57,310 nt of DNA from a bacterium (GTDB taxonomy: Bacteria; Patescibacteriota; Andersenbacteria; UBA10190): NCBI GenBank assembly GCA_030698495.1, contig JAUYKA010000018.1, positions 1-57,310 on the forward strand, in the 5' to 3' direction. Shown here piece after piece: positions 4,075 to 52,433 of the stretch. Below the pieces are notes generated by a model, which searched no databases, was not told the origin of the DNA, and was given only the letters and a program-made list of their open reading frames with translations. How positions within the stretch are numbered: position 1 is the stretch's first letter; the number at the start of each line of letters is the position of its first letter. The translations under genes and the position numbers were made by a program.

Positions 4075-5832
4075 ATGTCCCCCCAAAAACATCGCCGTCC
4101 CGTTCACCGGCGCCGGCGCGTTAAATACATTTTTGTTACCGGCGGAGTTCTCTCCGGCTTAGGCAAAGGCATAACCGCCGCTTCCATCGGTAATCTCTTA
4201 AAAAGCCGCGGGTTTTCCGTTAATATCCAAAAGTTTGACCAATATATTAATGTCGATGCCGGCACGCTCAACCCGGCCGAACACGGCGAAGTTTTTGTTA
4301 CCGACGACGGCGCCGAATGCGATTTAGATCTGGGTCATTATGAGAGGTTCTTAAACGAAAACCTGAAAAGCACCGCCTCCGTTATGACAGGGGAGATCTA
4401 TCAAGCGGTAATCAGCCGCGAAAGACGCGGCGACTACCTGGGCAAAACCGTGCAGGTTATTCCCCAAGTTACCGACGAAGTAAAAAAACGCGCGCGCCGG
4501 GCCGCGTATTCCAACGGCTATGATTTTCATATCGTCGAAATCGGCGGCACGGTAGGGGATAACGAAGGGTTTCATTTTCTGGAAGCCGCCCGCCAAATGA
4601 GTCTCGATGAAGGCGCGGATAACGTCTTATACGTTCATGTCGTTTTTCTGCCGTATTTGAAAGCTTCCGATGAGGTCAAAACCAAGCCGGCACAAAACAG
4701 TGTCAGAGAACTGCGCAGTATCGGCATTCAGCCGGACGTTCTAATCGCCCGAACCGATTATCCCGTGCGCGACAACATTGTTGATAAACTTTCTCTCTAC
4801 ACCAACGTTGCGCCCGAGGCCATTATGCCGCTTGTCACCGTGCCCAGCGTTTACGAAGTCCCTCTACTAATGGAAGCGAAACAACTCGACCATGTTATTT
4901 TAAACAAACTGGGACTTAAAGCCCGAAAGAAAGACAACAGTCGCTGGCGCAAATTCGTGCAAAACATTAAAAAAGACAAAGCCAACGTTACCATTGCCAT
5001 GGTTGGCAAATACACCACCATGCTGGATACTTATGCCAGCTTAGTTGAAGCGCTCAAAGCCGCCGCCTGGCACAATAATCGCGACCTAACCCTGCGTTGG
5101 GTGGATGCCGAAGAACTGGAAAAAAGCGACCCGGCTAATTCTCTGGATAATATTGCCGGCATTGTCGTCCCTGGCGGTTTCGGTATCCGCGGCACTGAAG
5201 GTAAAATAAAAGCTATCCAATACGCTCGGGAAAATAAAATTCCGTATCTGGGTATTTGCCTGGGCATGCAGTTGGCTACCATAGAATTTGCCCGGAATGT
5301 GCTTGGAGTATCCCAGGCAACCAGTGAAGAATTTATTGATGAAGGAGATGTTTCGGACAAACTGCGCCAAGCTTGCGTCATTCATATAATGGACGATCAA
5401 AAATTTGTGAAAGAAAAAGGCGGCACCATGCGCCTGGGCGGCTGGGATTGTTGGCTGAGGGAAGGCACTAAAACATATACCGCATATAGCTCTATATTCA
5501 AGAAAGATTCACCATATTCCAACCTCCTCAGCCAATCCGCCGTAGCCTCCGCCAAAGGCGGAGCGAAGGAGGATCAATCCAATAAAAAGATAATCCGTGA
5601 ACGCCACCGCCATCGCTATGAATTCAACAATGACTTTCGTCAGCAACTAACCAACGCCGGCTTGCGTGTTGCCGGAACTACTCCCGACAACAAACTGGTC
5701 GAAATAATTGAAGTCGCCGATCACCCCTGGTTTGTCGGTGTTCAATTTCATCCTGAATTTACTTCCCGTCCCAACCTCGGCCATCCACTGTTCAACGCAT
5801 TTTTAGCCGCTGCCATCAAGCAATCAACTTAA
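4075..5832 (+). CDS. pyrG: CTP synthase, with a short in-frame palindromic insertion
   Basis: KYIFVTGGVLSGLGKG, DLDLGHYERF, GICLGMQ, ERHRHRYE and QFHPEF. Confidence 0.98.
   Translation: MSPQKHRRPVHRRRRVKYIFVTGGVLSGLGKGITAASIGNLLKSRGFSVNIQKFDQYINVDAGTLNPAEHGEVFVTDDGAECDLDLGHYERFLNENLKSTASVMTGEIYQAVISRERRGDYLGKTVQVIPQVTDEVKKRARRAAYSNGYDFHIVEIGGTVGDNEGFHFLEAARQMSLDEGADNVLYVHVVFLPYLKASDEVKTKPAQNSVRELRSIGIQPDVLIARTDYPVRDNIVDKLSLYTNVAPEAIMPLVTVPSVYEVPLLMEAKQLDHVILNKLGLKARKKDNSRWRKFVQNIKKDKANVTIAMVGKYTTMLDTYASLVEALKAAAWHNNRDLTLRWVDAEELEKSDPANSLDNIAGIVVPGGFGIRGTEGKIKAIQYARENKIPYLGICLGMQLATIEFARNVLGVSQATSEEFIDEGDVSDKLRQACVIHIMDDQKFVKEKGGTMRLGGWDCWLREGTKTYTAYSSIFKKDSPYSNLLSQSAVASAKGGAKEDQSNKKIIRERHRHRYEFNNDFRQQLTNAGLRVAGTTPDNKLVEIIEVADHPWFVGVQFHPEFTSRPNLGHPLFNAFLAAAIKQST
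5533..5580. repeat. Palindromic element inserted in frame in pyrG, bounded by CAATCC direct repeats
   Basis: CAATCC-gccgtagc-ctccgccaaaggcgga-gcgaaggaggat-CAATCC, 42-nt offset between repeats; similar to 39510-39535 and 52386-52412. Confidence 0.7.
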
Positions 5833-5908
5833 CTCTTGCCAATTAAGCATTTATAGATTAAACCAAAAACAGGGTTAATCAGTTCTTTGGCCAATTCAGG
5901 AGATCAAC

Positions 5909-6184
5909 ATGGTCAGTGCAAACACCTCTTGCCCCGAATCGCTGTGTATGCAAATATTCATCGGCTTAAGACCATACCCCGGCCTGTTCGACCGATTTCG
6001 GATCAGGTTTGGCGAAATTCAGAGATTTTTCGCCAATCCGCCCAATCCTGCAACCGGCCACCAGCTGCGATGTTCCCTAATGCGGCTCATCGGAGAATTC
6101 GATCATTGGCACTTCCATGTCCTGTCCGAACAAACCACAGCGCTCATCAATATGATCAACAATCACCTGAACGCCAAAAAATAA
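5909..6184 (+). CDS. Hypothetical protein (91 aa)
   Basis: AGGAG SD upstream; fills the pyrG-rpmA gap; terminator follows. Confidence 0.6.
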   Translation: MVSANTSCPESLCMQIFIGLRPYPGLFDRFRIRFGEIQRFFANPPNPATGHQLRCSLMRLIGEFDHWHFHVLSEQTTALINMINNHLNAKK

Positions 6185-6215
6185 AAAACCGTGACCTTTC
6201 AAGGTGCACGGTTTT
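6185..6215. terminator. Bidirectional intrinsic terminator
   Basis: aaaaccgtg-acctttcaaggtg-cacggtttt between convergent genes. Confidence 0.7.
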
Positions 6216-6230
6216 CTATCTTCACCAGCC

Positions 6231-6506
6231 TTACTTTTCCACGCTGACAAAGACCGCTTTTTTCAGGACGCCGCTAAAGCGTTTTATTTTCTTGGCTGCG
6301 AACTTGACCACGCCGGTTGAGGCGGCATACAACGTGTCATCACCGGCGCGACGCACGCCGTCACCCGCCCGGTAATGAGATCCGCGCTGGCGTATAATTA
6401 TCTCGCCCGCTCGCGCCTTCTGTCCGCCAAATATCTTCACTCCCAATCTTTGGGCGGCGGAATCTCGTCCTAATTGTGTTGACCCTCCGGCTTTCTTATG
6501 CGCCAT
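6231..6506 (-). CDS. rpmA: 50S ribosomal protein L27
   Basis: [29 protein letters not shown]. Confidence 0.98.
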
Positions 6507-6572
6507 AACTTTTATTAATAACTATTAATAAAAAACTTACCAAATCTCAAAACCTTCCAGACTTTCCCATTA

Positions 6573-7811: not shown

Positions 7812-7897
7812 AATAACAATGTAACAATTTAACAATATAACAATTAATTAAGCAAAAACATCTTGCTCGTATCCTGCTATAGCCACAAACTGAAAAC

Positions 7898-8593: not shown

Positions 8594-8641
8594 ACAGTTA
8601 CTGTATTCACTGTATTTACTGTCCTCGCTGTATTTACTAGT
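8594..8641. repeat. Degenerate 9-bp tandem array (CTGTATTTA family)
   Basis: ctgtattca-ctgtattta-ctgtcctcg-ctgtattta. Confidence 0.75.
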
Positions 8642-8655
8642 ATAAACGTGTGGAC

Positions 8656-9150: not shown

Positions 9151-10133
9151 GAGCTTGATGAAAAACTAACCTAAAGCACAAAAAGTGCTGTTTTTGGTAT
9201 GATAGATGTGCTAAACAAACTAACACCAAAACCAACACTTTTATGTACTCTCAACATATTCCTACCTACGCTAGGTTTCAATGGATAAACAGTCGCAGAG
9301 TAATTTGTCTTTTAGAACAAGCGCTACCCTATGCCGGCACAGGGCGGCGGGGTCATAGCAAATCTTTGTTGTTCCGCTGGCTGATGTACAAACAAGTGAT
9401 GGGTTGCAGTTACCGCGATCTAGAGAGTATGAGCGGTGTGGATTTCACTACCTTTATCAAGTTTCGTGAGAAAATTAAACAGCAATGTTGGCTGGATAAT
9501 GTTTTTACTATCGTTGCCAAATCAGTGGTTAAAACAAGAAAATCACTCACGCTCATTACCGATTCTTCCTTTGTTGAACAGTATGCCAGACATAAAGAAA
9601 CAGGTGCTGAATATTCTGGCCACAAAGAGAAAACCGGCTTTAAACTGCATCAAATCATTGATTTCCGTACTCGTTTGCCGATGGCACAAGTTACTACAGG
9701 TGGCGCGAGAGCGGATGTGATACTAGCCCAACAGTTGGTGCAGAAATTACCTAAACGTTGGCCAGTGAAATCCTTTCTGGCCGACAAGGGTTACGATAGT
9801 AATGCCTTTGCGCAACAACTGCATCACAAATGGTTCGGCATCAAAGTTGGTATACCGGTCCGACGAACTGGTCAGGCTGCGAGAAAATCTAAGCGACAGG
9901 AGACGCCACTGAACAGACAGGCCAAAGAAGCTAATCGATGCCTTGATCTAAAGCTCTACAACAAACGCACCGAAGTTGAACGCTACTTTAGCCGTAAGAA
10001 ATATGTCTTCAATCTGGGCTGTGAACGTACATGTGGCATCGATAACTTTGATACTAATTGCTTAATGACATCTGTAATGGAACAGCTGGAGTACCTGGCA
10101 CGGCCGGGGTTAGGCTAGTTTTTCATCAAGCTC
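9151..10133 (+). mobile_element. Complete 983-bp insertion sequence (IS5/IS4-like DDE)
   Basis: 24-bp terminal IRs with 1 mismatch (9151-9174 and 10110-10133); TGGGGG target duplication (9145-9150 and 10134-10139). Confidence 0.92.
9243..10118 (+). CDS. DDE transposase
   Basis: ITDSS, GFKLH, FLADKGYDS and LYNKRTEVERYFSRKK motifs; stop lies inside the right IR. Confidence 0.93.
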   Translation: MYSQHIPTYARFQWINSRRVICLLEQALPYAGTGRRGHSKSLLFRWLMYKQVMGCSYRDLESMSGVDFTTFIKFREKIKQQCWLDNVFTIVAKSVVKTRKSLTLITDSSFVEQYARHKETGAEYSGHKEKTGFKLHQIIDFRTRLPMAQVTTGGARADVILAQQLVQKLPKRWPVKSFLADKGYDSNAFAQQLHHKWFGIKVGIPVRRTGQAARKSKRQETPLNRQAKEANRCLDLKLYNKRTEVERYFSRKKYVFNLGCERTCGIDNFDTNCLMTSVMEQLEYLARPGLG

Positions 10134-20386: not shown

Positions 20387-21373
20387 CTAGTGCTTACGTT
20401 TAATCACCTTTATAACGGCATCAACCATGGCCGCCGCGTTCAGACGATATTTACGCCACAACTCTTCCGGCTGACCCGATTCGCCAAAACTGTCGCGCAT
20501 ACCCACCATCTCTACCGGCACTGGATAACTTCTGGCCAAAGTCTCCGCCACGGCGCCGCCCAATCCGCCCGCCACTTGGTGTTCCTCGGCCGTAACCACC
20601 GCCCGGCATTCACGCGCCGCCCGTTCCACTGTCTCCTCGTCCATTGGCTTAATACTGGCCATGTTAATAACCCGCACCGATATCCCCTTCTCCACCAACC
20701 GATCCGCCGCCACCAACGCCTCATAAACCAATGGGCCGCAAGCAATTATTACTGCGTCTTTCCCGTCATGCAAAACGCGCGCCTTTCCGACAGTAAAAGG
20801 TGTTTGCGCAGTTGTAAACACCGGCGACTTCTCCCGCGAAAATCGCAAATACACGGGTCCTTTTATCGCCGCCGCCGCATGTGTTGCTTTTCTGGCCTCT
20901 TCCGCGTCGCACGGCGCCAGCACTGTTAAACGGGGCAAAACCCGCGTTAACGCTAAGTCTTCCAGTGCCTGATGTGTCGCTCCGTCCGGCCCCACGGACA
21001 AACCGGCATGGTGTCCGGCCAGCTTCACGTTAGCGTTGTTATAACAAACAGAAATCCTGATCTGATCCCACGTCCGCCCCGGCGAAAAAACGGCGTAAGT
21101 GGAAACAAAAGGAATTTTTCCCTGCAAAGCTAGCCCCACCGCCACTGTCACCATGTTCTGCTCCGCCACGCCCATTTGAATAAACCGGTCCGGATACAAA
21201 TCACGAAACTTTGCCGCTCTGGTCGACTCGGTTAAATCGGCTGATAAAGCCACTACATTGACATTCTTCTCCGCAACTTCCACCAAGCCGATACCGTAAC
21301 CGTCCCGCGTCGGCGCCATCTCAATGTCTTTACCGAAAATATTCCTCTTCAGATGTGATTCTTTAGTGAGCAC
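20387..21373 (-). CDS. Transketolase, C-terminal subunit
   Basis: ADLTEST, GVAEQNM, DGATHQ, GPVYLR and AEEHQ..GGLG. Confidence 0.95.
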   Translation of the reverse strand: MLTKESHLKRNIFGKDIEMAPTRDGYGIGLVEVAEKNVNVVALSADLTESTRAAKFRDLYPDRFIQMGVAEQNMVTVAVGLALQGKIPFVSTYAVFSPGRTWDQIRISVCYNNANVKLAGHHAGLSVGPDGATHQALEDLALTRVLPRLTVLAPCDAEEARKATHAAAAIKGPVYLRFSREKSPVFTTAQTPFTVGKARVLHDGKDAVIIACGPLVYEALVAADRLVEKGISVRVINMASIKPMDEETVERAARECRAVVTAEEHQVAGGLGGAVAETLARSYPVPVEMVGMRDSFGESGQPEELWRKYRLNAAAMVDAVIKVIKRKH

Positions 21374-21410
21374 AACTAGATAATTTATTAATTGAAATAT
21401 TTATTAAAAA

Positions 21411-22265
21411 TTAATAGTGAAGCTGCCGCAGCGCTGCCTCTAACTGTTTGTTTTTCGGCGGTGCTTTTTCCGTATCCAGTCCTCCCGGCGCTACCCCGTG
21501 CCAACGGTAATCTCCTTCCATAAAATCCACTCCTTTGCCGGGAATGGTATGAGCGATTAAACAAACCGGTTTTTCTCCGATAGCCCGCGCTTCCTGACAG
21601 GCGTCGATTATCTGCTCAATATTATGACCGTCTATTTCAATCACGTGCCAACCGAACGCTTCGTAGCGCTCGCGCAACGGTTCCTTGCCCATTACTTTCT
21701 CCGTCGGCCCGTCTATTTGAATATTATTACGGTCAACAATCGCCGTCAGGTGCTGCAGCTTATAATAACCGGCAAAATTAACCGCTTCCCAAGTTGACCC
21801 CTCGTCATGCTCGCCGTCGGATACCACACAATACGTCTGATAGTTTTTTCCATCCATGGCTGCCGCGTAAGCGCATCCGGCCGCGATCGATAACCCCTGC
21901 CCTAGACTAGCTGCTGTCGACTCCACTCCCGGTACCGTCAAGCGGTCGATGTGTCCCTGTAGGCGCGAGCCCAGCTTGCGCAAAGTCTTCAACTCTTCCA
22001 CGGGGAAAAACCCCGCCCGCGCCAGTGCGGCATACCAAATTGGTGCCGTGTGCCCGCAGGATACAAATAACCTATCCCTGTCCGGATCATTCTTGCGGCG
22101 TGGATCAATGTTTAAAACATTAAAATACATGGCGGCGGCAATATCGGCCAAACCCAACGGACCGGCCGTATGTCCAGACCCCGCCTCCGCCAGCATGGTC
22201 ACTACATCCCGGCGCAACGTGTTGGCCATCCGGCTTAAGCTGTCTAGTGTGGTAAGTTTCTTCAT
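21411..22265 (-). CDS. Transketolase, N-terminal subunit
   Basis: SGH, DRDR..SCGH, LQGH, SLGQGL, SDGE..EG..WEA and HTIPGKG. Confidence 0.95.
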   Translation of the reverse strand: MKKLTTLDSLSRMANTLRRDVVTMLAEAGSGHTAGPLGLADIAAAMYFNVLNIDPRRKNDPDRDRLFVSCGHTAPIWYAALARAGFFPVEELKTLRKLGSRLQGHIDRLTVPGVESTAASLGQGLSIAAGCAYAAAMDGKNYQTYCVVSDGEHDEGSTWEAVNFAGYYKLQHLTAIVDRNNIQIDGPTEKVMGKEPLRERYEAFGWHVIEIDGHNIEQIIDACQEARAIGEKPVCLIAHTIPGKGVDFMEGDYRWHGVAPGGLDTEKAPPKNKQLEAALRQLHY

Positions 22266-27185: not shown

Positions 27186-27554
27186 TTACAGCCGCCCAAT
27201 CTTCTGTTCGTGACGCTGAACTGATTCCTTCACTATTTCCATGTCGACTGTCAGCTGACCGGTTTGTTCAAAAATAACATCCACTTTTTCTGTCATATGA
27301 TCCATCCTTTCTGTCATGTTGTCCATCCTTTCTGTCATACCATCCATCCTCCCCGTCATATCATCCATCCTCCCCGTCATATGATCCATCCTTTCTGTGA
27401 GGTGAGAGATGTTTTCTTTTATGGTAGATATGTCATCAGAAATAATCTCGAGCTTGTAATCTGTGTTTTTAGTAAGCCCTTCAATCTTATCGTCAGTATG
27501 TTTAGCATGTTTTGCTAAAATTTCTTCTAGTCCTTTTCTATCAATTTTATCCAT
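27186..27554 (-). CDS. Coiled-coil protein with internal heptad tandem repeats
   Basis: xMT(E/G)RMD repeated about six times. Confidence 0.75.
   Translation of the reverse strand: MDKIDRKGLEEILAKHAKHTDDKIEGLTKNTDYKLEIISDDISTIKENISHLTERMDHMTGRMDDMTGRMDGMTERMDNMTERMDHMTEKVDVIFEQTGQLTVDMEIVKESVQRHEQKIGRL
27287..27405. repeat. 21-bp coding tandem repeat (about 5.5 units)
   Basis: tttctgtcatatgatccatcc-type units. Confidence 0.9.
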
Positions 27555-27644: not shown

Positions 27645-28481
27645 CTAACTTGTCTTTGCAATGATTTCCTCCGCTAATCCTGGGTACGGGGTCAGCAGGA
27701 CTTCCATTCCAATGTGATTCTCATACGACAGTGGCCGACCATCAGGGAAGAAAGCGACACTATCCTGAATTTCTGGAGACACCATTTCCCTCATGAAAAG
27801 ATGCCCAGCAGCGAAGTCCCAGACACAGGCGCTACGCTCGGGGATGTGGATGTTCAAGTAGGCATCAATTTCGCCTTGCACGAGCTCATAAACGCTGTAG
27901 ACGGCGGAGAGATTGGCATGGCTGCCTCTGGCGGCCGTAATCAGCGCCAGCTGTTTTTGAGCGCGCGTCTCATCAAGGTAGTACCACTCAACCCCAATTA
28001 CAGATTGATTGAGAGGCACGGTACCGCTGGCGGCTTGCCGTTGGCCGTTGACGAAGCACCCGCCTCCTCGGGAGGCGGTAATCATCACATCAATCACCGG
28101 GAGAAAGACTGCTCCGGCAACCGGCTGATTATCTTTTATCAGGCAAGCAGTCGTGCCCCACTTAAAAGACTTATGGCGAGTGAAATTGGTTGTACCATCA
28201 ATAGGATCAACGACAATTTTGTCACCGGCACGAGCTAGCTTCTCAAGCTCTCGGCGAGTTTTACCTTCCTCGCCAATAAGGGTAACTCCGGGAAATTTCG
28301 GACCCAGAGCATCAAAGATGAGCCGCTGCACGGCCGGGTCAACTTCGGTCAGGATATCTCTCGGATCTCCTCCTTTAGTAGTGATGTCAGCAGCGCTGAC
28401 GCCCGGACGCATTTGCAGTGCTAGCTGCCCGCCACGTTTGACGGCATCTCTGATGATTTCTAGCTCGCGTTCATAAGACAT
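27645..28481 (-). CDS. Inositol monophosphatase family protein
   Basis: TEVD, IGEE, VDPIDGTTNF and WDFAAG. Confidence 0.92.
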   Translation of the reverse strand: MSYERELEIIRDAVKRGGQLALQMRPGVSAADITTKGGDPRDILTEVDPAVQRLIFDALGPKFPGVTLIGEEGKTRRELEKLARAGDKIVVDPIDGTTNFTRHKSFKWGTTACLIKDNQPVAGAVFLPVIDVMITASRGGGCFVNGQRQAASGTVPLNQSVIGVEWYYLDETRAQKQLALITAARGSHANLSAVYSVYELVQGEIDAYLNIHIPERSACVWDFAAGHLFMREMVSPEIQDSVAFFPDGRPLSYENHIGMEVLLTPYPGLAEEIIAKTS

Positions 28482-30401: not shown

Positions 30402-30443
30402 CTATATTTACTTAATTTACTGTATTTACTGTCCTCGCTGTTT
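30402..30443. repeat. Degenerate 9-bp tandem array (CTGTATTTA family)
   Basis: ctatattta-cttaattta-ctgtattta-ctgtcctcg-ctgttt between convergent genes. Confidence 0.75.
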
Positions 30444-32092: not shown

Positions 32093-33194
32093 TTATTGTG
32101 CACTAAAAGGCGTATCAATAAAAGCGGACAAATTTCCATCCAGAACCGCCTCCACATTTTTGTCTTCAATCTTACTCCGGTGGTCTTTTACCAGCTTGTA
32201 CGGATGCAAGACATACGACCGTATTTGATTGCCCCAAGCCGCTTCTTTCACCTTTCCCTTTAATTGGCTGATTTCCTCGGCACGCTGTTCTTCCATTAAC
32301 ACCTGCAATTTAGCTTTCAATACGCTCATCGCCTGCATCTTATTTTGCGCTTGCGAGCGTTCATTCTGGCACTCCACTACCAGACCGGTCGGCAAATGCC
32401 GCACCCGTACCGCTGAACTGGTTTTATTCACATGTTGTCCCCCGGCGCCGCTGGCGCGAAAGGTATCGATCCCCAAATCCTTTGGATCAATTTCGGGCAA
32501 TTCCTTCTCCGGCAATTTCGGCAGTACTTCCACCCGCGCGAACGAAGTCTGCCGCAAGTTGTCGGCGTTAAACGGAGATAATCTCACTAGTCGATGCACG
32601 CCGTTTTCTTCCTTCAAGATTCCGTAAGCGTATCTTCCTTTTATTTCAAACGTCGTGTGCTTAATACCCGCCTCCTCCCCCGCCGACCGGTTCAACATTT
32701 TTGTCGGCCAGCCTTGTATATCCGCAAAGCGCAGATACATTCGCTCCAACATTTCCGCCCAATCCTGCGCGTCCGTGCCGCCCGCCCCGGACTGAATAGT
32801 CATAATTACCTCCGCCTTATCATGCGGCCCGTCAAAGCGAAGCTCGCGCTCTTTCTTTATAATTTCTTCCTCAATCGCGGCCACTTCCTCCTGCAGCAGC
32901 TGAACCATCTCGTCCCCGTCTTGTTTTTCAAGCAGCTCCTGTGACTGCCACTGCGGATCGGCCAACTCACCCAAACGCTGCTCAATATTTTTAAACCAGG
33001 CAACTTCGGCGGATAAATCGGCATATTCCTTGCGCTTATCCTGTAATTCGGGCGTCCAAGTCGATACCTTGGCAAACTGATCTTCTAGATTCTTGATTCT
33101 TAATTCTAGATTCCCGTAGTCAAAGACGGTCGGCCACTGTTTGCAGCCGCTTCTTAAGTCCCGCTATTTTCTTGGTTAAAGCCTCATCATTCAT
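32093..33194 (-). CDS. prfB: Peptide chain release factor 2 with programmed +1 frameshift
   Basis: ATG at 33194, 24 codons to CTT TGA C (33125-33119), then +1 frame continues into the tracked ORF with SPF and GGQ motifs. Confidence 0.95.
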
Positions 33195-33432
33195 AACTGC
33201 AGTGTATATATACTTCGAAAAAATAAAAACGGCAATTGTCGATTATCAATAATTACCATCAACACAGTTTCTGATTAGCTAATGTTAAGACATAACATTG
33301 CATTGTAAAATTAGCCGAGTCTTTGTTGCCGCCAAATATTCCGCACAATCAATTTGCTCACATTACCACATATCGATATGTGGTAATGTGAGGCCGGTCT
33401 TGATTCTTAATTCTGTATTCTTAATTCTACAA

Positions 33433-35046: not shown

Positions 35047-35304
35047 ATTTTTTGCTTCATAAAAAATACTAAAAACCCGCCATCTAATATATGCCACTTA
35101 TCGGGGTTTTAGCCAAGCCTTCGTTCGAAGCCCGATCACCCATGTCCACACCGGGTGTGGACATGGGTGACATTTTTAAAAATAAATACACCTTACATAT
35201 ACCAAAATAATTATGATTTTCAAGATAAAAATGAGCCCGCCTATTTTGCCGTAGCAAAAATATTGGCGGGCCCAAAAGAACCCAATTCGGTCAGTCCCTC
35301 AAGA

Positions 35305-39338: not shown

Positions 39339-39569
39339 GGAGCGGGTAACGGGAATCGCCCACTAATATAGCGGGCGCCCGCCGTACTGGCGGGCGAACC
39401 CAATACTGTGAGCGGGATACCAGAATCGAACTGGCGCATCCAGCTTGGGAAGCTGGCGTACTGCCACTGTACTAATCCCGCATAGAGCTACTGTCCTTAC
39501 CTTGCCTTGTCCGCCGAAGCTTTAGCGAAGGCGGAGGAAGGTCGTGTTCTACCACTGAACCATACCCGC
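39339..39569 (-). pseudogene. Interrupted tRNA-Gly gene carrying palindromic insertions and a nested intact tRNA
   Basis: 5' part GCGGGTATGGTTCAGTGGTAGAACACGACCTTCC (39569-39536); 3' part GGGTTCG[..]ATTCCCGTTACCCGCTCC; acceptor stem GCGGGTA/TACCCGC is perfect. Confidence 0.8.
39411..39481 (-). tRNA. tRNA-Gly(CCC)
   Basis: GCGGGAT/ATCCCGC; CCAGC-TTCCCAA-GCTGG; GCCAG-TTCGATT-CTGGT. Confidence 0.95.
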
Positions 39570-39636
39570 CTACGCTTTCAGCTACGGCGGGCAATGCCCG
39601 CTTGCTGAACCAACTGTCCGGCTGTATTTACTTAAT

Positions 39637-40206
39637 TTACTGTACTCGCTGTATAACTCGTCCTTCCTGCCTATCCCACTTTAAATGAAACGGCAGTACC
39701 ACGACAAGTCTTTCTTTCGCTAGCTGCTGATATAAATCATCCGGCGTTTCCGCCGAGCGCTGTTGGCGCAAACTCTCTTGCTCCAAATATGGCAACAGGA
39801 CATAGTTGTCATAATCGTCCAGTATTAATCCGGTTGTATCCTTAATCTGATTTTCTTGACTCACATTTAATATTTCCGTGCGGTATCTTTCCGCGTCAGC
39901 TAAGGTGACATTCTGGCGCAGTTGCGCGTAATGCGTCAGATGCTGGCGTGCCAGCGTGTTTAATGCGTCAGCCGCCGTTGGTATCTCTTGTCCGGTTTTT
40001 TCCGCAAACGTCTGCTGAATTTTTTCTTCCTTCAGCCACCGCGTTGAACTGACGCAGCCCCTGGTTGTACACACTACCGGCCAAGGAAAATATTCCGCCA
40101 ACACGTTTCCGGCCGGATCGCTCCCAGCCAAAACCCATGCCCAGCCGCCAAGCAGCAGTAATAAAAAGACTAATATTACCAACCCTGTTATCAATAGCCA
40201 GCGCAT
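39637..40206 (-). CDS. Membrane-anchored protein, possibly SurA/PrsA N-domain-like
   Basis: N-terminal TM, ...FPWPV.. and a helical domain. Confidence 0.65.
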   Translation of the reverse strand: MRWLLITGLVILVFLLLLLGGWAWVLAGSDPAGNVLAEYFPWPVVCTTRGCVSSTRWLKEEKIQQTFAEKTGQEIPTAADALNTLARQHLTHYAQLRQNVTLADAERYRTEILNVSQENQIKDTTGLILDDYDNYVLLPYLEQESLRQQRSAETPDDLYQQLAKERLVVVLPFHLKWDRQEGRVIQRVQ

Positions 40207-40605: not shown

Positions 40606-40618
40606 GGATCCATTATAA

Positions 40619-40699
40619 AGTAAATTAAGTAAATACAGTAAATTAAGTAAATACAGTAGCTGTATTTACTGTACTCGCTGAGTTCACTGTATTTACTGT
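40619..40699. repeat. Head-to-head 9-bp tandem arrays (CTGTATTTA family)
   Basis: agtaaatta-agtaaatac x2 followed by inverted ctgtattta-ctgtactcg-ctgagttca-ctgtattta. Confidence 0.8.
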
Positions 40700-41754
40700 T
40701 TAACCGTCACCGTTAATGTTTGCTCACCCCTTACTACCGTCAAGTTAAGCGGCAAACTTGTCAGTTGCGCCACAACGCTTTTCTGCCAATCCAACTGCTG
40801 ATCCCCTATTTTTGTTATTACATCGCCTTTCTTCATCCCGGCTGTTGCTGCCAGGCTATCCAACGTTACGGCATTAACGTGCGCTGTAAAAATCACCGCC
40901 TTGTCCTGACCCGGCCGACTAAAGGCGTAACTTATATCTAGTCCCAAATCAGTCAGTGGATTTAATTCCCGCTGGTTACCCACCACCCTGGCAAAACTTT
41001 CCCGTAAAACACTCACCGGTATTGCTGCACTTCCGGGCGTATCCATCATTACTGCCGCCAGTTTTCCCTCATCGTCCAATATCGGACTGCCGGTCCAGGC
41101 TTCTTTTGGCAACTCACTGCCCGCCAACACTTTTTGCAGTCCCGCTGGGCTGCCCCCGTCTGGCAAAACATAATCGCGTGCCTGAAATTGCCACGCTTTC
41201 GCGGCAAAAGTATTACTATTTCGTGTCAAAGACAACAAGTTTTGTCCGACCGACGGATCGTCTTGACTCATATCCAATGGCACTACCACGTAGTCGGTTA
41301 AGCGGTAATAAGTTAATCCGAATAACTCGTCTTGCCCGGCCAGCGCCAAAGGCAAAGCGCGTCCGGTATTGTCATAGGCTTGTACCTGACTTATCGGCGG
41401 TAACGTCGTTGCCACCAAACCATCACTTGTTACCGCCACCGCGGTACCGGCAATATTCACACCATCGCTCGCGGTGGTACCCAATAGAAAAACCGAACGC
41501 TGGGTCTTGTCCACCATATCCGCTGCCGCCCTATTTGGTGAAATAGTCACTTCTTGCACAGTCGTAAACAACTTATCGTTATCAGAAGACGCCAGGGGCG
41601 GCATTTGCGGCTCAACAATTTTTTGCCCCACCAACCCGCCAATAATACCTACGGCAAAAATCGATACCACCGCAGCCGTCATCCATGTCAGTGAAACTCT
41701 CACTACTTGTGGCTGTTTCTCCTCATTGTTTTGCCGGTCCATACTCATATCCAT
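40693..41754 (-). CDS. HtrA-like trypsin+PDZ protein lacking the catalytic motifs
   Basis: AVAVTSDGLVAT, WTGSPILDDEGKL and AGMKKGDVI PDZ. Confidence 0.75.
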   Translation of the reverse strand: MDMSMDRQNNEEKQPQVVRVSLTWMTAAVVSIFAVGIIGGLVGQKIVEPQMPPLASSDNDKLFTTVQEVTISPNRAAADMVDKTQRSVFLLGTTASDGVNIAGTAVAVTSDGLVATTLPPISQVQAYDNTGRALPLALAGQDELFGLTYYRLTDYVVVPLDMSQDDPSVGQNLLSLTRNSNTFAAKAWQFQARDYVLPDGGSPAGLQKVLAGSELPKEAWTGSPILDDEGKLAAVMMDTPGSAAIPVSVLRESFARVVGNQRELNPLTDLGLDISYAFSRPGQDKAVIFTAHVNAVTLDSLAATAGMKKGDVITKIGDQQLDWQKSVVAQLTSLPLNLTVVRGEQTLTVTVKQ

Positions 41755-42518: not shown

Positions 42519-42571
42519 AATCTACCAGCAAGATAAGCCATAACAGTAAATACAGCAAGGTCAGTAAATAC

Positions 42572-42690
42572 AGTAAATTCAGCCCAGCCTTCGCCCGCCA
42601 ATATTTTGCTTCGCAAAAAATAGGCGGGCTTCGGCCTTCAACTCCGAGGCTCAGGCTCGAAGAGCGGGCAAAGCGAAGCTAGTAAATTCG
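42572..42690. repeat. Composite nested palindromic repeat, copy 1
   Basis: 42572-42630 is identical to the reverse complement of 45602-45660. Confidence 0.88.
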
Positions 42691-42727
42691 GTGATTACAG
42701 AAGCTTTATTTACTGTATTTACTTAAT

Positions 42728-43657
42728 TTACTGTTTTCTAACTAAATAGTCTCCCGCCGACAACGCCGCCGAGCAGCCTTGCCCGGCTGCCACAATAATT
42801 TGTGCGTCTCTGATATTAGTAGCGTCTCCCGCCGCAAAAAACCCGGGAACACTGGTTACGCCGTACCTGTCCGCTTCAATAGCGCCAAAACGGTTTAATT
42901 TTATTAAATCTTTAACCGGCTCTGTATTTGGTATAGCGCCTATAGCCACAAATACCCCCTCAACTTCCAATGATTTCTTCTCGTTTGTTTTTACGTCCTT
43001 GTAATCCAGCTTCTTAACCATAACCTCTCCCCCGAGTTCTTCCACCTGGGCGTTAAAAATAGCCGATATTTTAGGATCGTTAATAAAACTATCAACCAAA
43101 ACCGGATCGGCTGTCAGCTCTTCCAAATTCTGCAATAGATATATCTTTCCGGCTATCTTTTGCAGCATAATAACTGCCTCCGCCGCCGTATTGCCTCCGC
43201 CTACAACCGCCACCGTTTTCCCCTGAAAAAGAGGCGCATCGCAGGTCGCGCAGTAAGTAATGCCTCTGTTTCTGAAACTGTCTTCCCCGGGCACACCCAG
43301 CTGGCGCGGACGGCGTCCCGCCGTATAAATAACTGTTTTCCCTTGATACTCTTTTCCATCTGCTCCCGTGCACACAAAAACATCATCGCGTTTTTCTATC
43401 CGCGCCACCTTCTTTACCTCAACCGCCACCATATCCTCATGCAGTTTCAAATGATCAACCAGTTTCTGTGCCAGCGTGTTGCCATCCGTCACGCCATCTC
43501 CTGGCCAATTTTCAATCTCCCCGGAATTTCTCACCTCTCCGCCCGGCAGCTCGCCGAACAGAAGAACGCTCAACTTCTTGCGCGCCGCGTAGATCGCCGC
43601 CGTCACCCCGGCCGGACCGTATCCGACAATAATAATGTCATAATTTTTTTTAACCAC
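42728..43657 (-). CDS. trxB: Thioredoxin-disulfide reductase
   Basis: GYGPAG..AAIYAAR, CATCD, GGGNTA and FAAGD. Confidence 0.9.
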   Translation of the reverse strand: MVKKNYDIIIVGYGPAGVTAAIYAARKKLSVLLFGELPGGEVRNSGEIENWPGDGVTDGNTLAQKLVDHLKLHEDMVAVEVKKVARIEKRDDVFVCTGADGKEYQGKTVIYTAGRRPRQLGVPGEDSFRNRGITYCATCDAPLFQGKTVAVVGGGNTAAEAVIMLQKIAGKIYLLQNLEELTADPVLVDSFINDPKISAIFNAQVEELGGEVMVKKLDYKDVKTNEKKSLEVEGVFVAIGAIPNTEPVKDLIKLNRFGAIEADRYGVTSVPGFFAAGDATNIRDAQIIVAAGQGCSAALSAGDYLVRKQ

Positions 43658-44049: not shown

Positions 44050-44168
44050 ATAAATTTTAAATTCTTAATTTTTAATCAATTAACTAATGTTTTAATAACC
44101 TAAACAAATTAGAACATTCAATAATTAAAGAATTGATTAAAAATTAAAAATTGGAAATTAAAAATTAT
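44050..44168. repeat. AT-rich degenerate 7-8 bp tandem array (AAAATTG/AAAATTA family)
   Basis: gaattgattaaaaattaaaaattggaaattaaaaatt; related copies at 31378-31405 and 52356-52432. Confidence 0.65.
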
Positions 44169-44217
44169 CTTTTGTCTATTCCTTGCATCAAGCAGGTTAA
44201 AGAGCTATTTTTTATCC

Positions 44218-45552
44218 ATGTCCATGACTAAGCAAAAAACCAAAACCGTAGCTGTTGTCGGCCTGGGCTATGTCGGCCTGCCGGTGGCCATACTGGCCGC
44301 GGCCAAAGGCTGGCGTGTCATCGGTCTCGATAAAGATGCTAACAAAGTAGCCGCCATCAACGCTGGCCGCTCTCCTCTGAATGATGCCCAACTCAACAAA
44401 CAACTGAAAAAAGTAACCATCGAAGCCACTACTGATCCTGTCGCTATCAAACAAGCCAGTCATATAATAGTTGCCGTACCCACTCCGGTCAGCGATGGCA
44501 ACCTGCCCGATCTTACCCCCCTAAAATCAGCCGTTGAGTCTCTATGCCCTCATTTGCAGCCCGGCCAGTCTTTAATTATCGAATCAACCATTAACCCCGG
44601 CGTGACGGACGAAATCATAGTTCCCATACTTAGGAAACAACCCGGCCTAGTTTTGGATGTTGACGGTTACAGTCGCACGGCGGTCTGTTTAGCGCATTGC
44701 CCGGAACGTATTAATCCGGGCGACTCCCAATGGACTGTGCGCAATATCCCGCGCGTTATCGGCGGGTACTCGAACCCCGGCGTGACTAAAGCAAAATCTT
44801 TCTATGATAGCATCGTCGAGGCCCCTATCAAACGCATGAATTCCATCCAAGAAGCTGAAGCCGTCAAAATATTGGAGAATACTTTTCGTGACATTAATAT
44901 CGCTTTCATTAATGAAATGGCCAAATCTTTTGCCAAACTTAACATTGATATCTTAAACGTCATTGCCGGCGCGGCTACCAAGCCGTTTGCTTTTCTCCCT
45001 CACTATCCCGGCAACGGCGTCGGCGGCCACTGCATTAGTGTCGACCCCTACTACATGATTGAACGCGGCCGTAAAGCCGGTTTCGACCATGAATTTCTAA
45101 AGCTGGCACGGCGCATCAATGACAGCATGCCTGCGTACACCGTTGAATTATTATTAACCGGTTGGGAAAAACTGTCCGTTAAATCTTCGGCGCAAAAAGT
45201 AGCCTTACTGGGCCTGGCCTATAAAAAGAACATCGACGATTTGCGGGAAAGCCCAGCGCTGGAAATTAAGCGCCTACTGGAAAACAAAAAAATTTCCATA
45301 AATATCTACGATCCCTATGCCGCCAAACAATCAACTGTGAACAGTCTTGACCAAGCGCTGGTCGGAGCCAGTGCCGTTATGCTGGCCTGCGACCACGACG
45401 AATTTACTAAAAAATTAACGCCCGATTATCTCAAATCTTCCGGTATCCAACTGGTTATCGACGGAAAAAACGCGCTTGATGGCGATGGTATCGCCGCTGC
45501 CGGCATCTATTACTACGGCATCGGTCGTAAACGTTTACCAGCTATACAGTAA
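44218..45552 (+). CDS. Nucleotide-sugar dehydrogenase (UDP-HexNAc dehydrogenase, WecC/WbpA-like)
   Basis: GLGYVGLP, VPTP, EST..PG, CPERINPG, KILENTFRDINIA, GGHCI and KKNIDDLRESP. Confidence 0.93.
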   Translation: MSMTKQKTKTVAVVGLGYVGLPVAILAAAKGWRVIGLDKDANKVAAINAGRSPLNDAQLNKQLKKVTIEATTDPVAIKQASHIIVAVPTPVSDGNLPDLTPLKSAVESLCPHLQPGQSLIIESTINPGVTDEIIVPILRKQPGLVLDVDGYSRTAVCLAHCPERINPGDSQWTVRNIPRVIGGYSNPGVTKAKSFYDSIVEAPIKRMNSIQEAEAVKILENTFRDINIAFINEMAKSFAKLNIDILNVIAGAATKPFAFLPHYPGNGVGGHCISVDPYYMIERGRKAGFDHEFLKLARRINDSMPAYTVELLLTGWEKLSVKSSAQKVALLGLAYKKNIDDLRESPALEIKRLLENKKISINIYDPYAAKQSTVNSLDQALVGASAVMLACDHDEFTKKLTPDYLKSSGIQLVIDGKNALDGDGIAAAGIYYYGIGRKRLPAIQ

Positions 45553-45670
45553 ATTCAGTAACTACAGCTGCTTTATTTACTAATCTCGCTTTGCCCGCCA
45601 TAGCCCGCCTATTTTTTGCGAAGCAAAATATTGGCGGGCGAAGGCTGGGCTGAATTTACTATATTTACTT
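45545..45670. repeat. Composite nested palindromic repeat, copy 2 (inverted), inside 9-bp arrays
   Basis: See 42572-42690. Confidence 0.88.
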
Positions 45671-46093
45671 AATATTCTGGTCTTCCTCAATAATAGAGGC
45701 TGTATTCTCTGGTGATGTGGCTTCAGGTTCTTCTGTTGACGTTTCTTGTGCTTCCTGACTCATTAATTCCCGAGAGGCTGCTGCAATGTCTTGAACAGCG
45801 CTTTTAAACTCATTTACCGGTGATTGCGCCGTCGCCGGTGTACCAGTATTCTGTCGCCACTCACTTCTCTGCTTCTGATAATTACGATACCCCCCCCAAA
45901 TCAAACCGGCCAAAAACACCGGGAACCACACTAACGTCAAAAACTGCGATAATACCGATAATAAAAACAGCAGCAAACCGGCCACTACGCCGTAAGCCAG
46001 CGCCCAATACATCACCGGATAAATATTAGGCTTAAACTCTTGCCCGGTGCTTTGGTTATTCATCCCTCCCCCAACTGATTGTTCTGGTTCCAT
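45665..46093 (-). CDS. Two-TM hypothetical protein
   Basis: Two hydrophobic helices plus an acidic tail. Confidence 0.7.
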   Translation of the reverse strand: MEPEQSVGGGMNNQSTGQEFKPNIYPVMYWALAYGVVAGLLLFLLSVLSQFLTLVWFPVFLAGLIWGGYRNYQKQRSEWRQNTGTPATAQSPVNEFKSAVQDIAAASRELMSQEAQETSTEEPEATSPENTASIIEEDQNIK

Positions 46094-47651: not shown

Positions 47652-47759
47652 AATGTTACGACATAACGTTATATCGTAACATTCCGAACCGATTTTTTTG
47701 TTATAGAAAAGACCATCCGCTCTCGGCTGCGAATGGTCTCATGTTTCCAACTAGGCGGA

Positions 47760-48673: not shown

Positions 48674-49771
48674 CTATTTCTTCTTACCGCCAACCGGATG
48701 TTGGACAATCGAGATTAACGCCAGTATCAGCGCCCCTAAGGACAATACCATCATAATCAACACAAACAAGCCGCCGATCAACGGCACAATCCTGACCGTC
48801 GCGAATATTACTGCTCCCATTAGCGCGTGCTGCCACGTGTTATGCCCGATCTCCTGCTTTAATAACTTCACCGCTACCCACTCGCCAACCAGAATAGCTA
48901 TATACCCAATAGCCGTAATTACCAATGCTATCGTTGCCAACACGGCGATTATTGCCAGCGGAATGCCGACCACAGTGACTAACAGCAGGACAGATAATGG
49001 TATAGCCACTAATAGCCATAAAATTCCCACCCCGAAAGATTTCAAGGTTTGTTTTTTGGCTGTTTCAAAAACCGTTCGCGTTAATCCGGGTAGCAAGAAA
49101 AGCAATACCAGCGCGAATACAAACCAGGTCACCACACTGCGTACCCAGTTTAAGATATACAGTCGCTGACTTATTTCTTTTGCTCCCGATACGTGTTGGG
49201 TAACAACATGCTTTACTTCTCCTCTAATTATAGCGCCATCGTCAATTTGCACCTTCGCTTTTTCTTCTCCGTATGTAATAAGATCACCGTTAATAACCGC
49301 GCTGGCAGTAACCAACAACGACGGAGCCGCTACTTTGACCGCGCCGTCTATTGTTCCCGAAATTTCTACTGTTGAACCGGCTAAATAAGCATCACCCGAT
49401 GCGTTTACCTCTTGAGATAAGGTAACGTTATTTCCGGCCGCAAAAATATCATCAGCTTCAGGCGATTCCACCCGCACCGTATTGCCGGCCGCATACACAT
49501 CATCACCCACCGAGCCGCTCACCGTCACCGAACTTCCGGCCGCATACACATCCTGGCCGACCGAACCGCTTATCTCCACCGCATTTCCGGCCGCGAAGAC
49601 GTCGTCTTTTACCGGCTGGTCAATGGTAACTCGTTGCCCGGCTATGTAAGCATCATCTTGTACCGCATTATCGGGAGACACATTTTCTCCCGCCGCAAAA
49701 TAAGCTGCTCCTGCCGCCGTTGGCAAAACCATAACCAGCGCCAGAACAATCGCCAAACTGTAATATTTCAT
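48674..49771 (-). CDS. Secreted beta-helix (bactofilin-like repeat) domain fused to a multi-TM domain
   Basis: Signal peptide; about 15-aa repeats D.YAAG..V.I.G.V; C-terminal TMs. Confidence 0.82.
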   Translation of the reverse strand: MKYYSLAIVLALVMVLPTAAGAAYFAAGENVSPDNAVQDDAYIAGQRVTIDQPVKDDVFAAGNAVEISGSVGQDVYAAGSSVTVSGSVGDDVYAAGNTVRVESPEADDIFAAGNNVTLSQEVNASGDAYLAGSTVEISGTIDGAVKVAAPSLLVTASAVINGDLITYGEEKAKVQIDDGAIIRGEVKHVVTQHVSGAKEISQRLYILNWVRSVVTWFVFALVLLFLLPGLTRTVFETAKKQTLKSFGVGILWLLVAIPLSVLLLVTVVGIPLAIIAVLATIALVITAIGYIAILVGEWVAVKLLKQEIGHNTWQHALMGAVIFATVRIVPLIGGLFVLIMMVLSLGALILALISIVQHPVGGKKK

Positions 49772-49899: not shown

Positions 49900-50106
49900 T
49901 TACTCCTTGTCTGAATATTTCTGCTCTATCTTCGTTACCTTATTCTCAATTTCCTTTAATCGTTTCTTAAGCGCCGCCGCCAATTCCAAACCCCGTTCAA
50001 ATCGCGGTAAATCTTTTTCCAAATCCAATTCGTGCGATTCAAAATCGGACACGATTTTTTCCAGCTCTTCATAAGCTTTCGCAAAAACAAACTTTTCTTC
50101 AGTCAT
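49900..50106 (-). CDS. xseB: Exodeoxyribonuclease VII small subunit
   Basis: LEKIV..FE...LDLE....FERG..L; adjacent to xseA. Confidence 0.9.
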   Translation of the reverse strand: MTEEKFVFAKAYEELEKIVSDFESHELDLEKDLPRFERGLELAAALKKRLKEIENKVTKIEQKYSDKE

Positions 50107-50129
50107 ATAAAAACTATTGATGGTTTAAT

Positions 50130-51284: not shown

Positions 51285-51297
51285 GAATACAATGACT

Positions 51298-52269
51298 TTA
51301 TCCGCGTATAACCAGAAAACCGGTGTAAGCCGCGTATAGCGCCAAAAACGACACCCCTTCCCACCGCTCCAGCACTTTTTTTCTGCCTGTAAACATAGCT
51401 ATAAACAGCAGTAACGCCGCCGCTATCATTACCGTCAGATCAAAGTTCAAACCGCTTGTTAATGGCAGCGGCCTAATTACCGCCGTAGTCGCCAAAATAA
51501 ACAACAAATTAAAAATATTTGAGCCGACAATATTACCCACCGCGATATCTACGTTTTTACGCCAGGCTGCCACCACTGACGTCGCCAGCTCCGGCAAAGA
51601 TGTGCCGATTGCCACAATACTCAAGCCGATTACCGCCTCACTCACTCCTAAAGCCGTGGCGAACTTGGTTGCACTATCGACCATCCAATAACCACCCAGC
51701 ACTAAACCGGCCAACCCTCCACTTATCATTAATGAAGCTTTCTGCCAACTGCGTTTTTTAATATCAGGATTGTCTGTTCCGCCCTTCACCCGACTAATGC
51801 CGTAGGTGTAATACAAGAAGATCGAAAACAGTAAAAGCAGAACCAAACCGTCTATCCGTGTTACCGCCGATTGGCCGGCGCCATCAATGGCGCCGTCATT
51901 CACCAAAAAAAGCACCGCCAGCGATGCCAACAACATTAACGGAATTTCGCTCCAAATCGTACTGCGTTTAACCGCCAACGGCGCGATAATCGCCGTCACA
52001 CCTAAAATAAGCAAAACATTTGCTATATTACTGCCGATAATATTCCCCAACGCCAGCTCCGTACTGCCGCGTATGGCCGACAACAAATTAACCACCAACT
52101 CCGGGCTAGACGTGCCAAACGCCACTACCGTTAAACCGATAACCAACTCACTCACCCCAAATTTTTTCGCCAACGACCCCGCGCCATCAACTAATAAATC
52201 GGCGCCCTTAATCAGCGCCACTAAACCCAATACGAAAAAAATCAAACTTCCTACCATCATATCTACCAT
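51298..52269 (-). CDS. Calcium/sodium antiporter (YrbG/CaCA family)
   Basis: Two alpha repeats GTSSPE/GTSLPE and GNI.GSNI.N; start uncertain. Confidence 0.92.
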   Translation of the reverse strand: MVDMMVGSLIFFVLGLVALIKGADLLVDGAGSLAKKFGVSELVIGLTVVAFGTSSPELVVNLLSAIRGSTELALGNIIGSNIANVLLILGVTAIIAPLAVKRSTIWSEIPLMLLASLAVLFLVNDGAIDGAGQSAVTRIDGLVLLLLFSIFLYYTYGISRVKGGTDNPDIKKRSWQKASLMISGGLAGLVLGGYWMVDSATKFATALGVSEAVIGLSIVAIGTSLPELATSVVAAWRKNVDIAVGNIVGSNIFNLLFILATTAVIRPLPLTSGLNFDLTVMIAAALLLFIAMFTGRKKVLERWEGVSFLALYAAYTGFLVIRG

Positions 52270-52433
52270 TATAGCAGCAATTATCCTCCCGCCACATCCC
52301 CCGTATTTCAAACACCAATGACCAATTAACGACGTCGCTGTCAGTGATCATTAAGTAATTGAAGAATTGATTAAAAATTACTGTGTCGGCCATAGCCTTG
52401 TGCGACGGCTGAAAAATTGATAATTGAAAATTC

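Follow-up and report, generated by a model that had tools for sequence, protein, structure and literature searches.

The window analyzed here is a whole contig of 57,310 nt from Candidatus Andersenbacteria (CPR/Patescibacteria), an uncultivated bacterium, in which short GC-rich hairpins of two types lie within pyrG, in tRNA-like fragments, and in arrays of AT-rich repeats. Type 1 is an imperfect hairpin of 24 to 52 nt with a GC stem of 5 to 6 bp, inside which are found a conserved 3x3 purine internal loop, a GC/GC clamp, and a variable apex. Type 2 is a hairpin of 37 nt. The hairpins and the features around them are as follows.

5491..5583, plus strand: in-frame insert of 93 nt (31 amino acids) in pyrG (4075-5832), holding a type-1 copy
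5536..5573, plus strand: type-1 copy in pyrG, read in frame, its apex a perfect inner hairpin (7-bp stem, 3-nt loop) at 5547-5563
6423..6461, plus strand: hairpin of the form TCCGCC...GGCGGA in the spacer of two convergent genes, possibly a degenerate relative; a weak match (14.9 bits, E = 0.15)
9151..10133, plus strand: the only transposase-bearing element (DDE_Tnp_1), with 24-nt terminal inverted repeats; outside the hairpin family
35235..35271, no strand assigned: solitary type-2 hairpin with a GC stem, an AT-rich inner stem, and a GC-N4-GC apex
39356..39397, no strand assigned: 42-nt GC palindrome, which has only the stem in common with type 2
39410..39481, minus strand: intact tRNA-Gly(CCC), found by ARAGORN and Rfam, between two tRNA fragments
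39505..39601, minus strand: tRNA-Gly-like 5' fragment with the acceptor 5' strand, the D arm, and the anticodon stem and loop to about position 40
39510..39535, plus strand: simple type-1 copy with a 4-nt apex, in the anticodon loop of the tRNA-Gly(CCC)-like 5' fragment (positions 35/36)
39565..39591, minus strand: simple type-1 copy with a 5-nt apex, at positions 8/9 of the tRNA-Gly-like 5' fragment
42581..42680, minus strand: composite of a type-1 copy (42585-42636), whose apex is a type-2 copy (42593-42629), and a 30-nt palindrome (42636-42665)
45584..45652, plus strand: composite without the 30-nt piece, with type 1 at 45596-45647 and type 2 at 45603-45639 (folding z of -4.77)
52381..52412, plus strand: 32-nt insert, 5 nt plus a type-1 copy (52386-52412), inside an AT-rich 7/8-mer array

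Using the pattern SGCC-RWA-GC-(3-40 nt)-GC-GWM-GGMKG, type 1 was found at 5538-5572 (+), 39512-39534 (+), 39566-39589 (-), 42585-42636 (-), 45596-45647 (+), and 52388-52411 (+), in agreement with every coordinate at which an earlier note on this DNA had placed the type-1 core. The six matches in the 57-kb contig compare with a mean of 0.0033 and a maximum of 1 in 300 first-order Markov simulations, a test that is generous because the pattern was composed after the copies had been seen. Both half-sites were also in excess, with GCCRWAGC seen 18 times (8.7 +/- 3.0 expected) and GCGWMGGCKG 12 times (1.1 +/- 1.2 expected), counts that were reached in 0 of 100 shuffles. A covariance model built from five type-1 copies placed the held-out pyrG copy as its top new match, at only 15.7 bits (E = 0.09), and beyond this copy no other convincing match was present in the 57-kb contig, which therefore holds six type-1 copies. 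As the copies at 42.6 and 45.6 kb are one composite found twice, these represent five independent sites rather than six.

The dispersed type-1 copies are alike in their unpaired parts and not in their stems alone: the RWA and GWM triplets, on one and the same strand in the two arms, are common to them, and the GC/GC clamp is conserved. In an alignment of five sequences only, pairing was kept in 92.5% of cells and changes on both sides were seen in two of eight pairs. The pyrG copy has an imperfect 3' arm (GGAGGA), for which MAFFT offers another register. Nested copies folded better than shuffled sequences (z of -4.1 to -4.8); the simple type-1 copies folded no better than shuffles (z of -0.6 to -2.3). 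No copy matched an Rfam family at the gathering threshold or at an E value of up to 5.

Three matches to type 2 were present in the contig (0.00 expected), giving nine copies of the two types in this one contig, and in two of the three occurrences type 2 forms the apex of type 1. A second hairpin type had been proposed at 35235-35271, at 39359-39394, and inside type 1; the first and last of these are type 2, and the sequence at 39359-39394 shares only the CCCGCC/GGCGGG stem. The latter is part of the separate 42-nt palindrome (39356-39397) and a different element. In line with the earlier note, these very short imperfect palindromes form a true repeat family of nested architecture, found both in tRNA-like sequence and in AT-rich arrays of 9-mer and 7/8-mer units.

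Each composite interrupts a 9-mer array, the one at 42.6 kb downstream of a trxB-like gene (42728-43657, minus strand) and the other downstream of a ugd-like gene (44218-45552, plus strand). They are reverse complements of one another, with identity over 59 to 68 nt, and the arrays that flank them are only about 65 to 80% alike. The 30-nt piece at 42636-42665 constitutes an indel between these otherwise identical composites. It had been read as an insert with a GC duplication, and its presence at 42.6 kb and absence at 45.6 kb are as reported; the indel may equally be a gain or a loss, and the GC duplication may simply belong to the palindrome. The 52.4-kb site offers a clean 32-nt filled/empty pair, with paralogous arrays lacking the insert at 44096-44180 and 21363-21425. 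Across the composites, the tRNA fragment sites, and the paralogous arrays, neither a target duplication nor a target motif recurred consistently. A preference for hairpin DNA as the target is one reading of the nesting, which may equally reflect a variable apex or deletion derivatives.

The tRNA-Gly-like 5' fragment is split by two type-1 copies, inverted relative to each other and 29 nt apart. Similarly, 38 nt (39359-39396) of the GC palindrome split the T loop (TT/CG) of a tRNA 3' fragment at 39339-39404 on the minus strand. In this region only the intact tRNA-Gly(CCC) was detected by ARAGORN and Rfam, and neither called the 5' fragment. The suggestion that tRNA arms are targets holds insofar as tRNA-like pieces are interrupted, but these are incomplete fragments even with the inserts removed and not working tRNA genes. 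No tRNA-Gly gene for comparison was present among the retrieved 9-mer-array loci.

The 31-amino-acid insert in pyrG is missing from the 10 closest homologs (10/10) and from the solved structure PDB 9kao_A, the alignment with which breaks at 472/504. The first 14 codons of the insert are AT richer and may be an older, decayed insert; no second copy of the remainder of the 93 nt was found in the contig or the retrieved loci. Among 120 homologs, 14 carry inserts of 7 to 31 amino acids in the same loop, and these carriers are scattered on the tree, as Fitch parsimony required 13 changes for 14 carriers (mean of 13.5 with shuffled labels). Their nearest noncarriers share 99.6, 97.6, and 96.1% identity outside the loop. 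Orthologous empty sites, on which the earlier note's reading depended, are therefore at hand, with the loop filled or empty in homologs 96 to 99.6% identical. As the same loop occurs with and without inserts in relatives, the repeats behave like miniature mobile DNA, although the loop could be merely indel prone.

A tie between type 1 and the inserts of these relatives is possible, as judged from peptides. The minus strand of 39510-39535 translates as SAFAKASA, and a similar core is found in several of the pyrG insert carriers. Exact back-translation to the type-1 pattern was possible at one site in 65,697 pyrG residues, which lies in the insert of homolog P0042. When up to two mismatches were allowed the signal was weak, with 10 of 1,133 windows within the loop compared with 245 of 63,604 outside, and within the loop only P0042, besides the contig's own protein, did better than two mismatches. 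In a second CPR genome, efp carries two neighboring in-frame TCCGCC-N3-GGCGGA hairpins, which coincide with a 10-residue gap relative to PDB 1yby_A. Inserts were present in 11 of 120 EF-P homologs, at three sites, and exact back-translation to the type-1 pattern was possible at one site in the 120 proteins, within an insert of P0123.

The 69 ORFs of the contig were compared with Pfam, the 18 unassigned ones among them at an E value of up to 1. No HUH/RAYT protein, GIY-YIG protein, or matching IS was found among them, in keeping with the earlier note's statement that no cognate transposase is visible in the contig. The one DDE IS (9151..10133) was ruled out as the driver, since the terminal repeats that it carries at 9151-9174 and 10110-10133 bear no relation to the hairpins. 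Further copies were sought among 112 listed loci that match the 9-mer array pattern (303,999 nt, mostly from unrelated AT-rich taxa), and neither the type-1 nor the type-2 pattern matched there. In the 26 loci of that listing from other CPR classes (63,856 nt), the best match to the covariance model had an E value of 0.21.

Enterobacterial REPs carry a conserved 5' GTAG; here G-W-A-G lies inside the hairpin. The type-1 elements resemble REPs and REPINs as these are portrayed in PMC3116915, being short (about 20 to 40 nt), imperfect, GC-rich palindromes that fold as single strands, are noncoding, and occur clustered or nested. REPs are described there as extragenic, with hundreds of copies, mostly in inverted doublets of fixed spacing, and with a flanking RAYT gene (PMC3116915). 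Of the six type-1 copies, 39510+ and 39565- form an inverted pair, but the other four are singlets and one is intragenic and in frame in pyrG (5536-5573), both of which speak against strict REP membership. No RAYT was found among the 69 ORFs of the contig, and the REP/RAYT-like mobilization that had been proposed is putative. Nearest in size and in the idea of nesting are the small dispersed repeats (SDR; Elhai et al. 2008, Genome Res 18:1484) of cyanobacteria, eight families of 21 to 27 nt that reportedly form hairpins, appear mobile, and are found inside one another, with no known enzyme. These belong to a different phylum. IS-derived MITEs have terminal inverted repeats matching those of a resident IS and generate target duplications. 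The hairpins are likewise small, noncoding, dispersed, and partly palindromic; however, the ends of the sole IS are unrelated to them, no duplication was consistent from site to site, and they are much smaller than MITEs.

Rickettsia palindromic elements enter housekeeping genes of unrelated kinds in frame, and the proteins tolerate the peptide that is added (PMC10969869); the in-frame insertion in pyrG is comparable. Those elements are about 150 bp with a conserved peptide ORF, whereas the units here are 15 to 60 nt and their added peptides are mere translations of the hairpin, with no conserved element ORF. The GC clusters of yeast mitochondria (e.g., GC42) are GC-rich hairpins of about 30 to 50 nt in AT-rich spacers, with conserved stems and variable loops. 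They merge and shuffle units, are patchy among strains, and spread by homologous recombination, with no known transposase (PMC4478555). Within the 9-mer unit, the composite may be bounded by an AG on each side (AG...AG), comparable to the AG target duplication of those clusters, a reading that is ambiguous with two copies of one composite; moreover, the yeast clusters reside in organelle genomes and are unrelated in sequence. The attC sites, CRISPR, and TIGR arrays were considered improbable and set aside, as no recombinase or array context is present. No description of REP-like or palindromic repeats in Patescibacteria, CPR, or Parcubacteria was found in the literature searched, which covered few subscription journals.

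On balance, we consider it somewhat probable that the hairpins are nonautonomous, very short GC-rich repeats of a REP-, SDR-, or GC cluster-like kind that are mobilized in trans by a putative mechanism. Copying, presumably from a folded single strand and by an enzyme whose gene lies in another part of the genome, would have placed them at eight or more sites of the Andersenbacteria contig. The leading candidate would be an HUH/Y1 enzyme of the RAYT or IS200/IS605 type, which is favored because the hairpin is imperfect and strand asymmetric and lacks a clear target duplication. Landing sites may be unpaired or hairpin-prone DNA, such as the apices of other copies, tRNA loops, and inverted AT-rich arrays. 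Later spread between strains could proceed via homologous recombination, in-frame copies would persist solely in tolerant surface loops, and intergenic copies followed by T-rich arrays might serve as terminator hairpins.

Alternatively, the hairpins may have arisen locally with no dedicated enzyme, through template switching or snap-back at GC-rich quasi-palindromes that grows palindromes from the inside out, followed by gene conversion or recombination that homogenizes and relocates them. This appears unlikely, even though the layers have a CCGCC/GGCGG stem and a GC-N3-5-GC apex in common and neither a target duplication nor a suitable transposase is seen in the contig. A conserved GC-rich stretch also follows the pyrG loop at a distance of a few codons, and the residues beside the inserts differ between carriers and their nearest noncarriers, as they would after recombination. 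Local origin leaves unexplained, however, why near-identical units of 37 to 59 nt occur at unlinked sites with unrelated flanks and why noncomplementary triplets are conserved in all copies.

Less likely still is that the hairpins are selected host structures duplicated with their surroundings, whether intrinsic terminators, RNA stability hairpins, or protein sites at the GA-rich internal loop. Five of the eight intergenic sites come after the 3' ends of genes, both composites have a T-rich array downstream when read in the sense of the gene upstream, a T-rich run comes after the solitary type 2 on the minus strand, and compensatory changes maintain the stems. By eye, T-rich sequence does not follow the pyrG or tRNA copies. 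Host structures are harder to reconcile with one copy in frame in a coding region and three in dead tRNA pieces, with copies in both orientations relative to transcription, with the absence of an Rfam match, and with the patchy presence of inserts among near-identical pyrG proteins; a terminator scan also flagged none of the copies and found ordinary terminators elsewhere in the contig. Chance likeness between ordinary hairpins rich in GC, in a genome whose spacers are AT rich, is barely credible. Such hairpins are common, and the candidate at 28060 turned out to be plain coding sequence, but chance accounts neither for 6 type-1 matches against 0.003 expected and 3 type-2 matches against 0 nor for conserved loops and mismatches and 59 nt identical at two loci.

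Perfect 6-bp GC-rich hairpins number 113 in the contig and are mostly within genes. The one at 28060-28078 was examined as another possible copy within a gene, but it shows no insertion relative to PDB 5i3s_A and is therefore ordinary coding sequence.

Beyond the reading of trans-mobilized repeats in this contig, a wider extension can be offered only tentatively, and we regard it as doubtful: that there is a CPR-wide class of ultra-short (15 to 60 nt) GC-rich hairpins without a protein of their own, which home into unpaired loops of folded DNA such as one another's apices and the loops of tRNAs, repeatedly enter surface loops of essential genes (pyrG and efp) in frame, and turn over between strains 96 to 99.6% identical. 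CPR/Patescibacteria have small genomes, in which mobile DNA is considered scarce. If the class exists, it would be an undescribed source of variation in protein loops and intergenic regions of minimal genomes, and gene calling, tRNA detection, and strain typing in CPR lineages would be affected. Should the nesting, the breakage of tRNA genes, and the strain-level peptides in essential enzymes hold, hairpins of 26 to 60 nt would rank among the smallest mobile units, and the pyrG and efp loops would provide orthologous filled and empty sites from which the insertion mechanism could be read in DNA.

The type 1 element is an imperfect GC hairpin in which an outer stem of 5 to 6 bp (TCCGCC/GGCGGA or a variant) is followed inward by a 3-by-3 internal loop and then by a 2-bp GC/GC clamp that closes a variable apex. 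Each arm of the internal loop carries a purine-rich triplet, R-W-A in one and G-W-M in the other, both read on the same strand, and these conserved, noncomplementary triplets argue for common descent over convergence on stable stems. The apex is 4 to 5 nt in three copies, a perfect 17-nt hairpin in the pyrG copy, and an entire 37-nt type 2 hairpin in the two composites. Rereading the sequence located every copy where the earlier note had placed it, with type 1 at the following positions.

5536-5573, within pyrG
39510-39535, within a tRNA-Gly-like fragment
39565-39591, within the same fragment
42585-42636, composite
45596-45647, composite
52386-52412, within an AT-rich array

The family had been described as having no cognate transposase, and this is borne out for the window, where the sole transposase belongs to a DDE IS with ends unrelated to the hairpins and no HUH, GIY-YIG, or similar domain was found among the ORFs even at an E value of ≤1. 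This compact IS (9151-10133; 983 bp) encodes a DDE_Tnp_1 transposase (9243-10118), has 24-nt terminal inverted repeats that are 96% complementary, and adjoins G runs. As for the proposed insertion at dinucleotides or short direct repeats, the composite can be read as AG...AG within a 9-mer unit and the T-loop insert as CG...CG, and the 52.4-kb insert has no such repeat; no consistent target duplication was found across the window inserts. Because the window holds neither a driver nor a consistent target duplication, we lean toward a family of single-strand hairpin repeats mobilized in trans. An HUH-type enzyme would be the leading, unproven candidate agent, and recombination could be the route of the repeats between strains.

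The composites share 59 to 68 identical nt, whereas their flanking arrays are only approximately 65 to 80% alike, which points to recent copying or conversion. The extra 30-nt piece reported earlier was found as a palindrome in one composite and not in the other. Growth of the hairpins by template switching is an unlikely explanation for the family. Each composite lies within 9-mer arrays downstream of a trxB-like (minus strand) or ugd-like (plus strand) gene, and both present the hairpin and then a T-rich array when read in the orientation of that gene; that the hairpins are putative functional terminators or binding sites is somewhat less probable still. The simple type 1 copies fold no more stably than shuffled sequences. 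Chance resemblance is very improbable, with six occurrences of the combined type 1 pattern (defined post hoc) in the window against 0.003 expected, each half-site enriched separately, and three type 2 hairpins against 0 expected. A covariance model of five copies returned the held-out pyrG copy as its top new match, though weakly (15.7 bits; E = 0.09), and found no seventh copy in the window. Pairing was maintained in 92.5% of cells, with both-sided changes in two of eight pairs, which, from five sequences only, is only suggestive as covariation support.

Returning to the proposed trans-mobilized family, the pyrG copy is translated in frame inside a 31-amino-acid insert that is missing from all 10 of the closest homologs and that, aligned with the solved CTP synthase structure 9kao_A, falls after residue 458 and before residue 459. 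The window enzyme (4075-5832) retains every invariant residue, and its best homologs (74 to 79% identical) come from MAGs named Candidatus Andersenbacteria or Patescibacteria. The loop usually comprises four residues, lying between a conserved AY and IRERHRH; inserts of 7 to 31 amino acids occur in 14 of 120 homologs. On a tree computed without the loop residues, carriers were scattered, with the 14 of them requiring 13 parsimony changes, much as with shuffled labels, and carrier/noncarrier pairs of homologs reached 99.6% (P0095/P0117), 97.6% (P0101/P0117), and 96.1% (P0042/P0052) identity outside the loop. The minus-strand translation of the 39510 copy reads SAFAKASA, and a similar ten-residue core is present in five or six insert carriers. 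Strict back-translation into the type 1 pattern was possible at one place in 65,697 pyrG residues, the insert of homolog P0042. When up to two mismatches were allowed, 10 of 1,133 windows inside the loop and 245 of 63,604 outside it were compatible; as the enrichment fades with mismatches, the DNA-level tie rests mainly on that one protein. A second loop (between ATSEEF and CVIH, after window residue 422-428) has variable inserts in approximately 20 of 120 homologs and holds 3 of the 11 one-mismatch type 1-compatible sites outside the main loop (P0008, P0020, and P0052).

In L018, a Nomurabacteria-like contig among the loci fetched with the array pattern, two adjoining TCCGCC-N3-GGCGGA hairpins lie in frame in efp and coincide with a gap of 10 residues in the alignment to PDB 1yby_A; the gene also has a longer GC hairpin farther upstream. 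EF-P inserts occur at three sites in 11 of 120 homologs, with carriers scattered on a tree that is weak for so short a protein, and the sole type 1-compatible back-translation lies within one insert.

On the minus strand, the 39339-39601 region holds an intact tRNA-Gly(CCC) between two pieces resembling tRNA-Gly, one a 5' fragment and the other a 3' fragment, suggesting an older disrupted gene that may have been replaced or partly duplicated. The 5' fragment, whose anticodon also reads CCC, contains two type 1 copies in opposite orientations, one at position 8/9 and the other in the anticodon loop, and the 3' fragment has its T loop divided by a 38-nt GC palindrome distinct from type 1. All three interruptions fall in cloverleaf loops, but the fragments are incomplete as tRNAs even without the inserts. 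At 52.4 kb, type 1 breaks an AT-rich 7/8-mer array, and exactly 32 nt are missing there in two paralogous arrays.

The hairpins work like REP/REPIN, SDR, RPE, and mitochondrial GC clusters but are too small for a MITE or an RPE, and Rfam gave zero family matches to the copies. As members of the REP class they fail for extragenic restriction and doublet organization, and no RAYT was found in the window.

The window is gene dense, with 48% GC, AT-rich spacers, and negative GC skew throughout. Its spacers carry 9-mer arrays (AGTAAAT core, two variable bases).

8598-8643, 9-mer array
30402-30436, 9-mer array
39619-39650, 9-mer array
40613-40703, 9-mer array
42543-42582, 9-mer array
42681-42734, 9-mer array
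45539-45581, 9-mer array
45650-45675, 9-mer array

Frequently, one block follows the stop codon, and another in inverted orientation (ATTTACT core) directly precedes the next start codon. Among the matches listed, arrays occur at loci L013, L018, L025, L026, L053, L075, L077, L081, L094, L095, L001, L076, L002, L064, L110, L006, L047, L084, L088, L033, L036, L049, L100, and L022; the same core and layout are found in spacers of several further CPR lineages (Buchananbacteria, Nomurabacteria, Portnoybacteria, and Parcubacteria-group MAGs), and the listed non-CPR matches are mostly plain tandem arrays. The arrays look like a conserved intergenic punctuation signal (candidate terminator, promoter, or protein-binding array). 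In L036, from another Patescibacteria MAG, two inverted copies of a repeat of approximately 45 nt (2060-2185) form a REPIN-like doublet beside the array, one with a nested hairpin centered on GCGAAGC.

A subthreshold AdoCbl riboswitch match (55655-55749, minus strand; 36.2 bits, where the gathering score is 50; E = 0.005) lies upstream of DUF4430 and DUF6580 genes (54969-55535, 53009-54967, and 52434-53012) and may be a divergent cobalamin riboswitch with putative control of an uptake operon. The RF2-like ORF (32093-33297, minus strand) is missing its N-terminal part; CTTTGAC occurs as its reverse complement near 33120 in the spacer upstream, so prfB probably has its usual programmed +1 frameshift. 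Coding tandem repeats have 51-nt units (17 amino acids; 49475-49594) in a bactofilin-like ORF (48674-49771) and 21-nt units (7 amino acids; 27287-27398) in ORF 27186-27554. A T run follows a perfect 17-bp hairpin (35136-35170) that has no obvious plus-strand gene upstream, and a 32-nt AT-rich palindrome (47652-47683) directly follows a Sua5-like gene.
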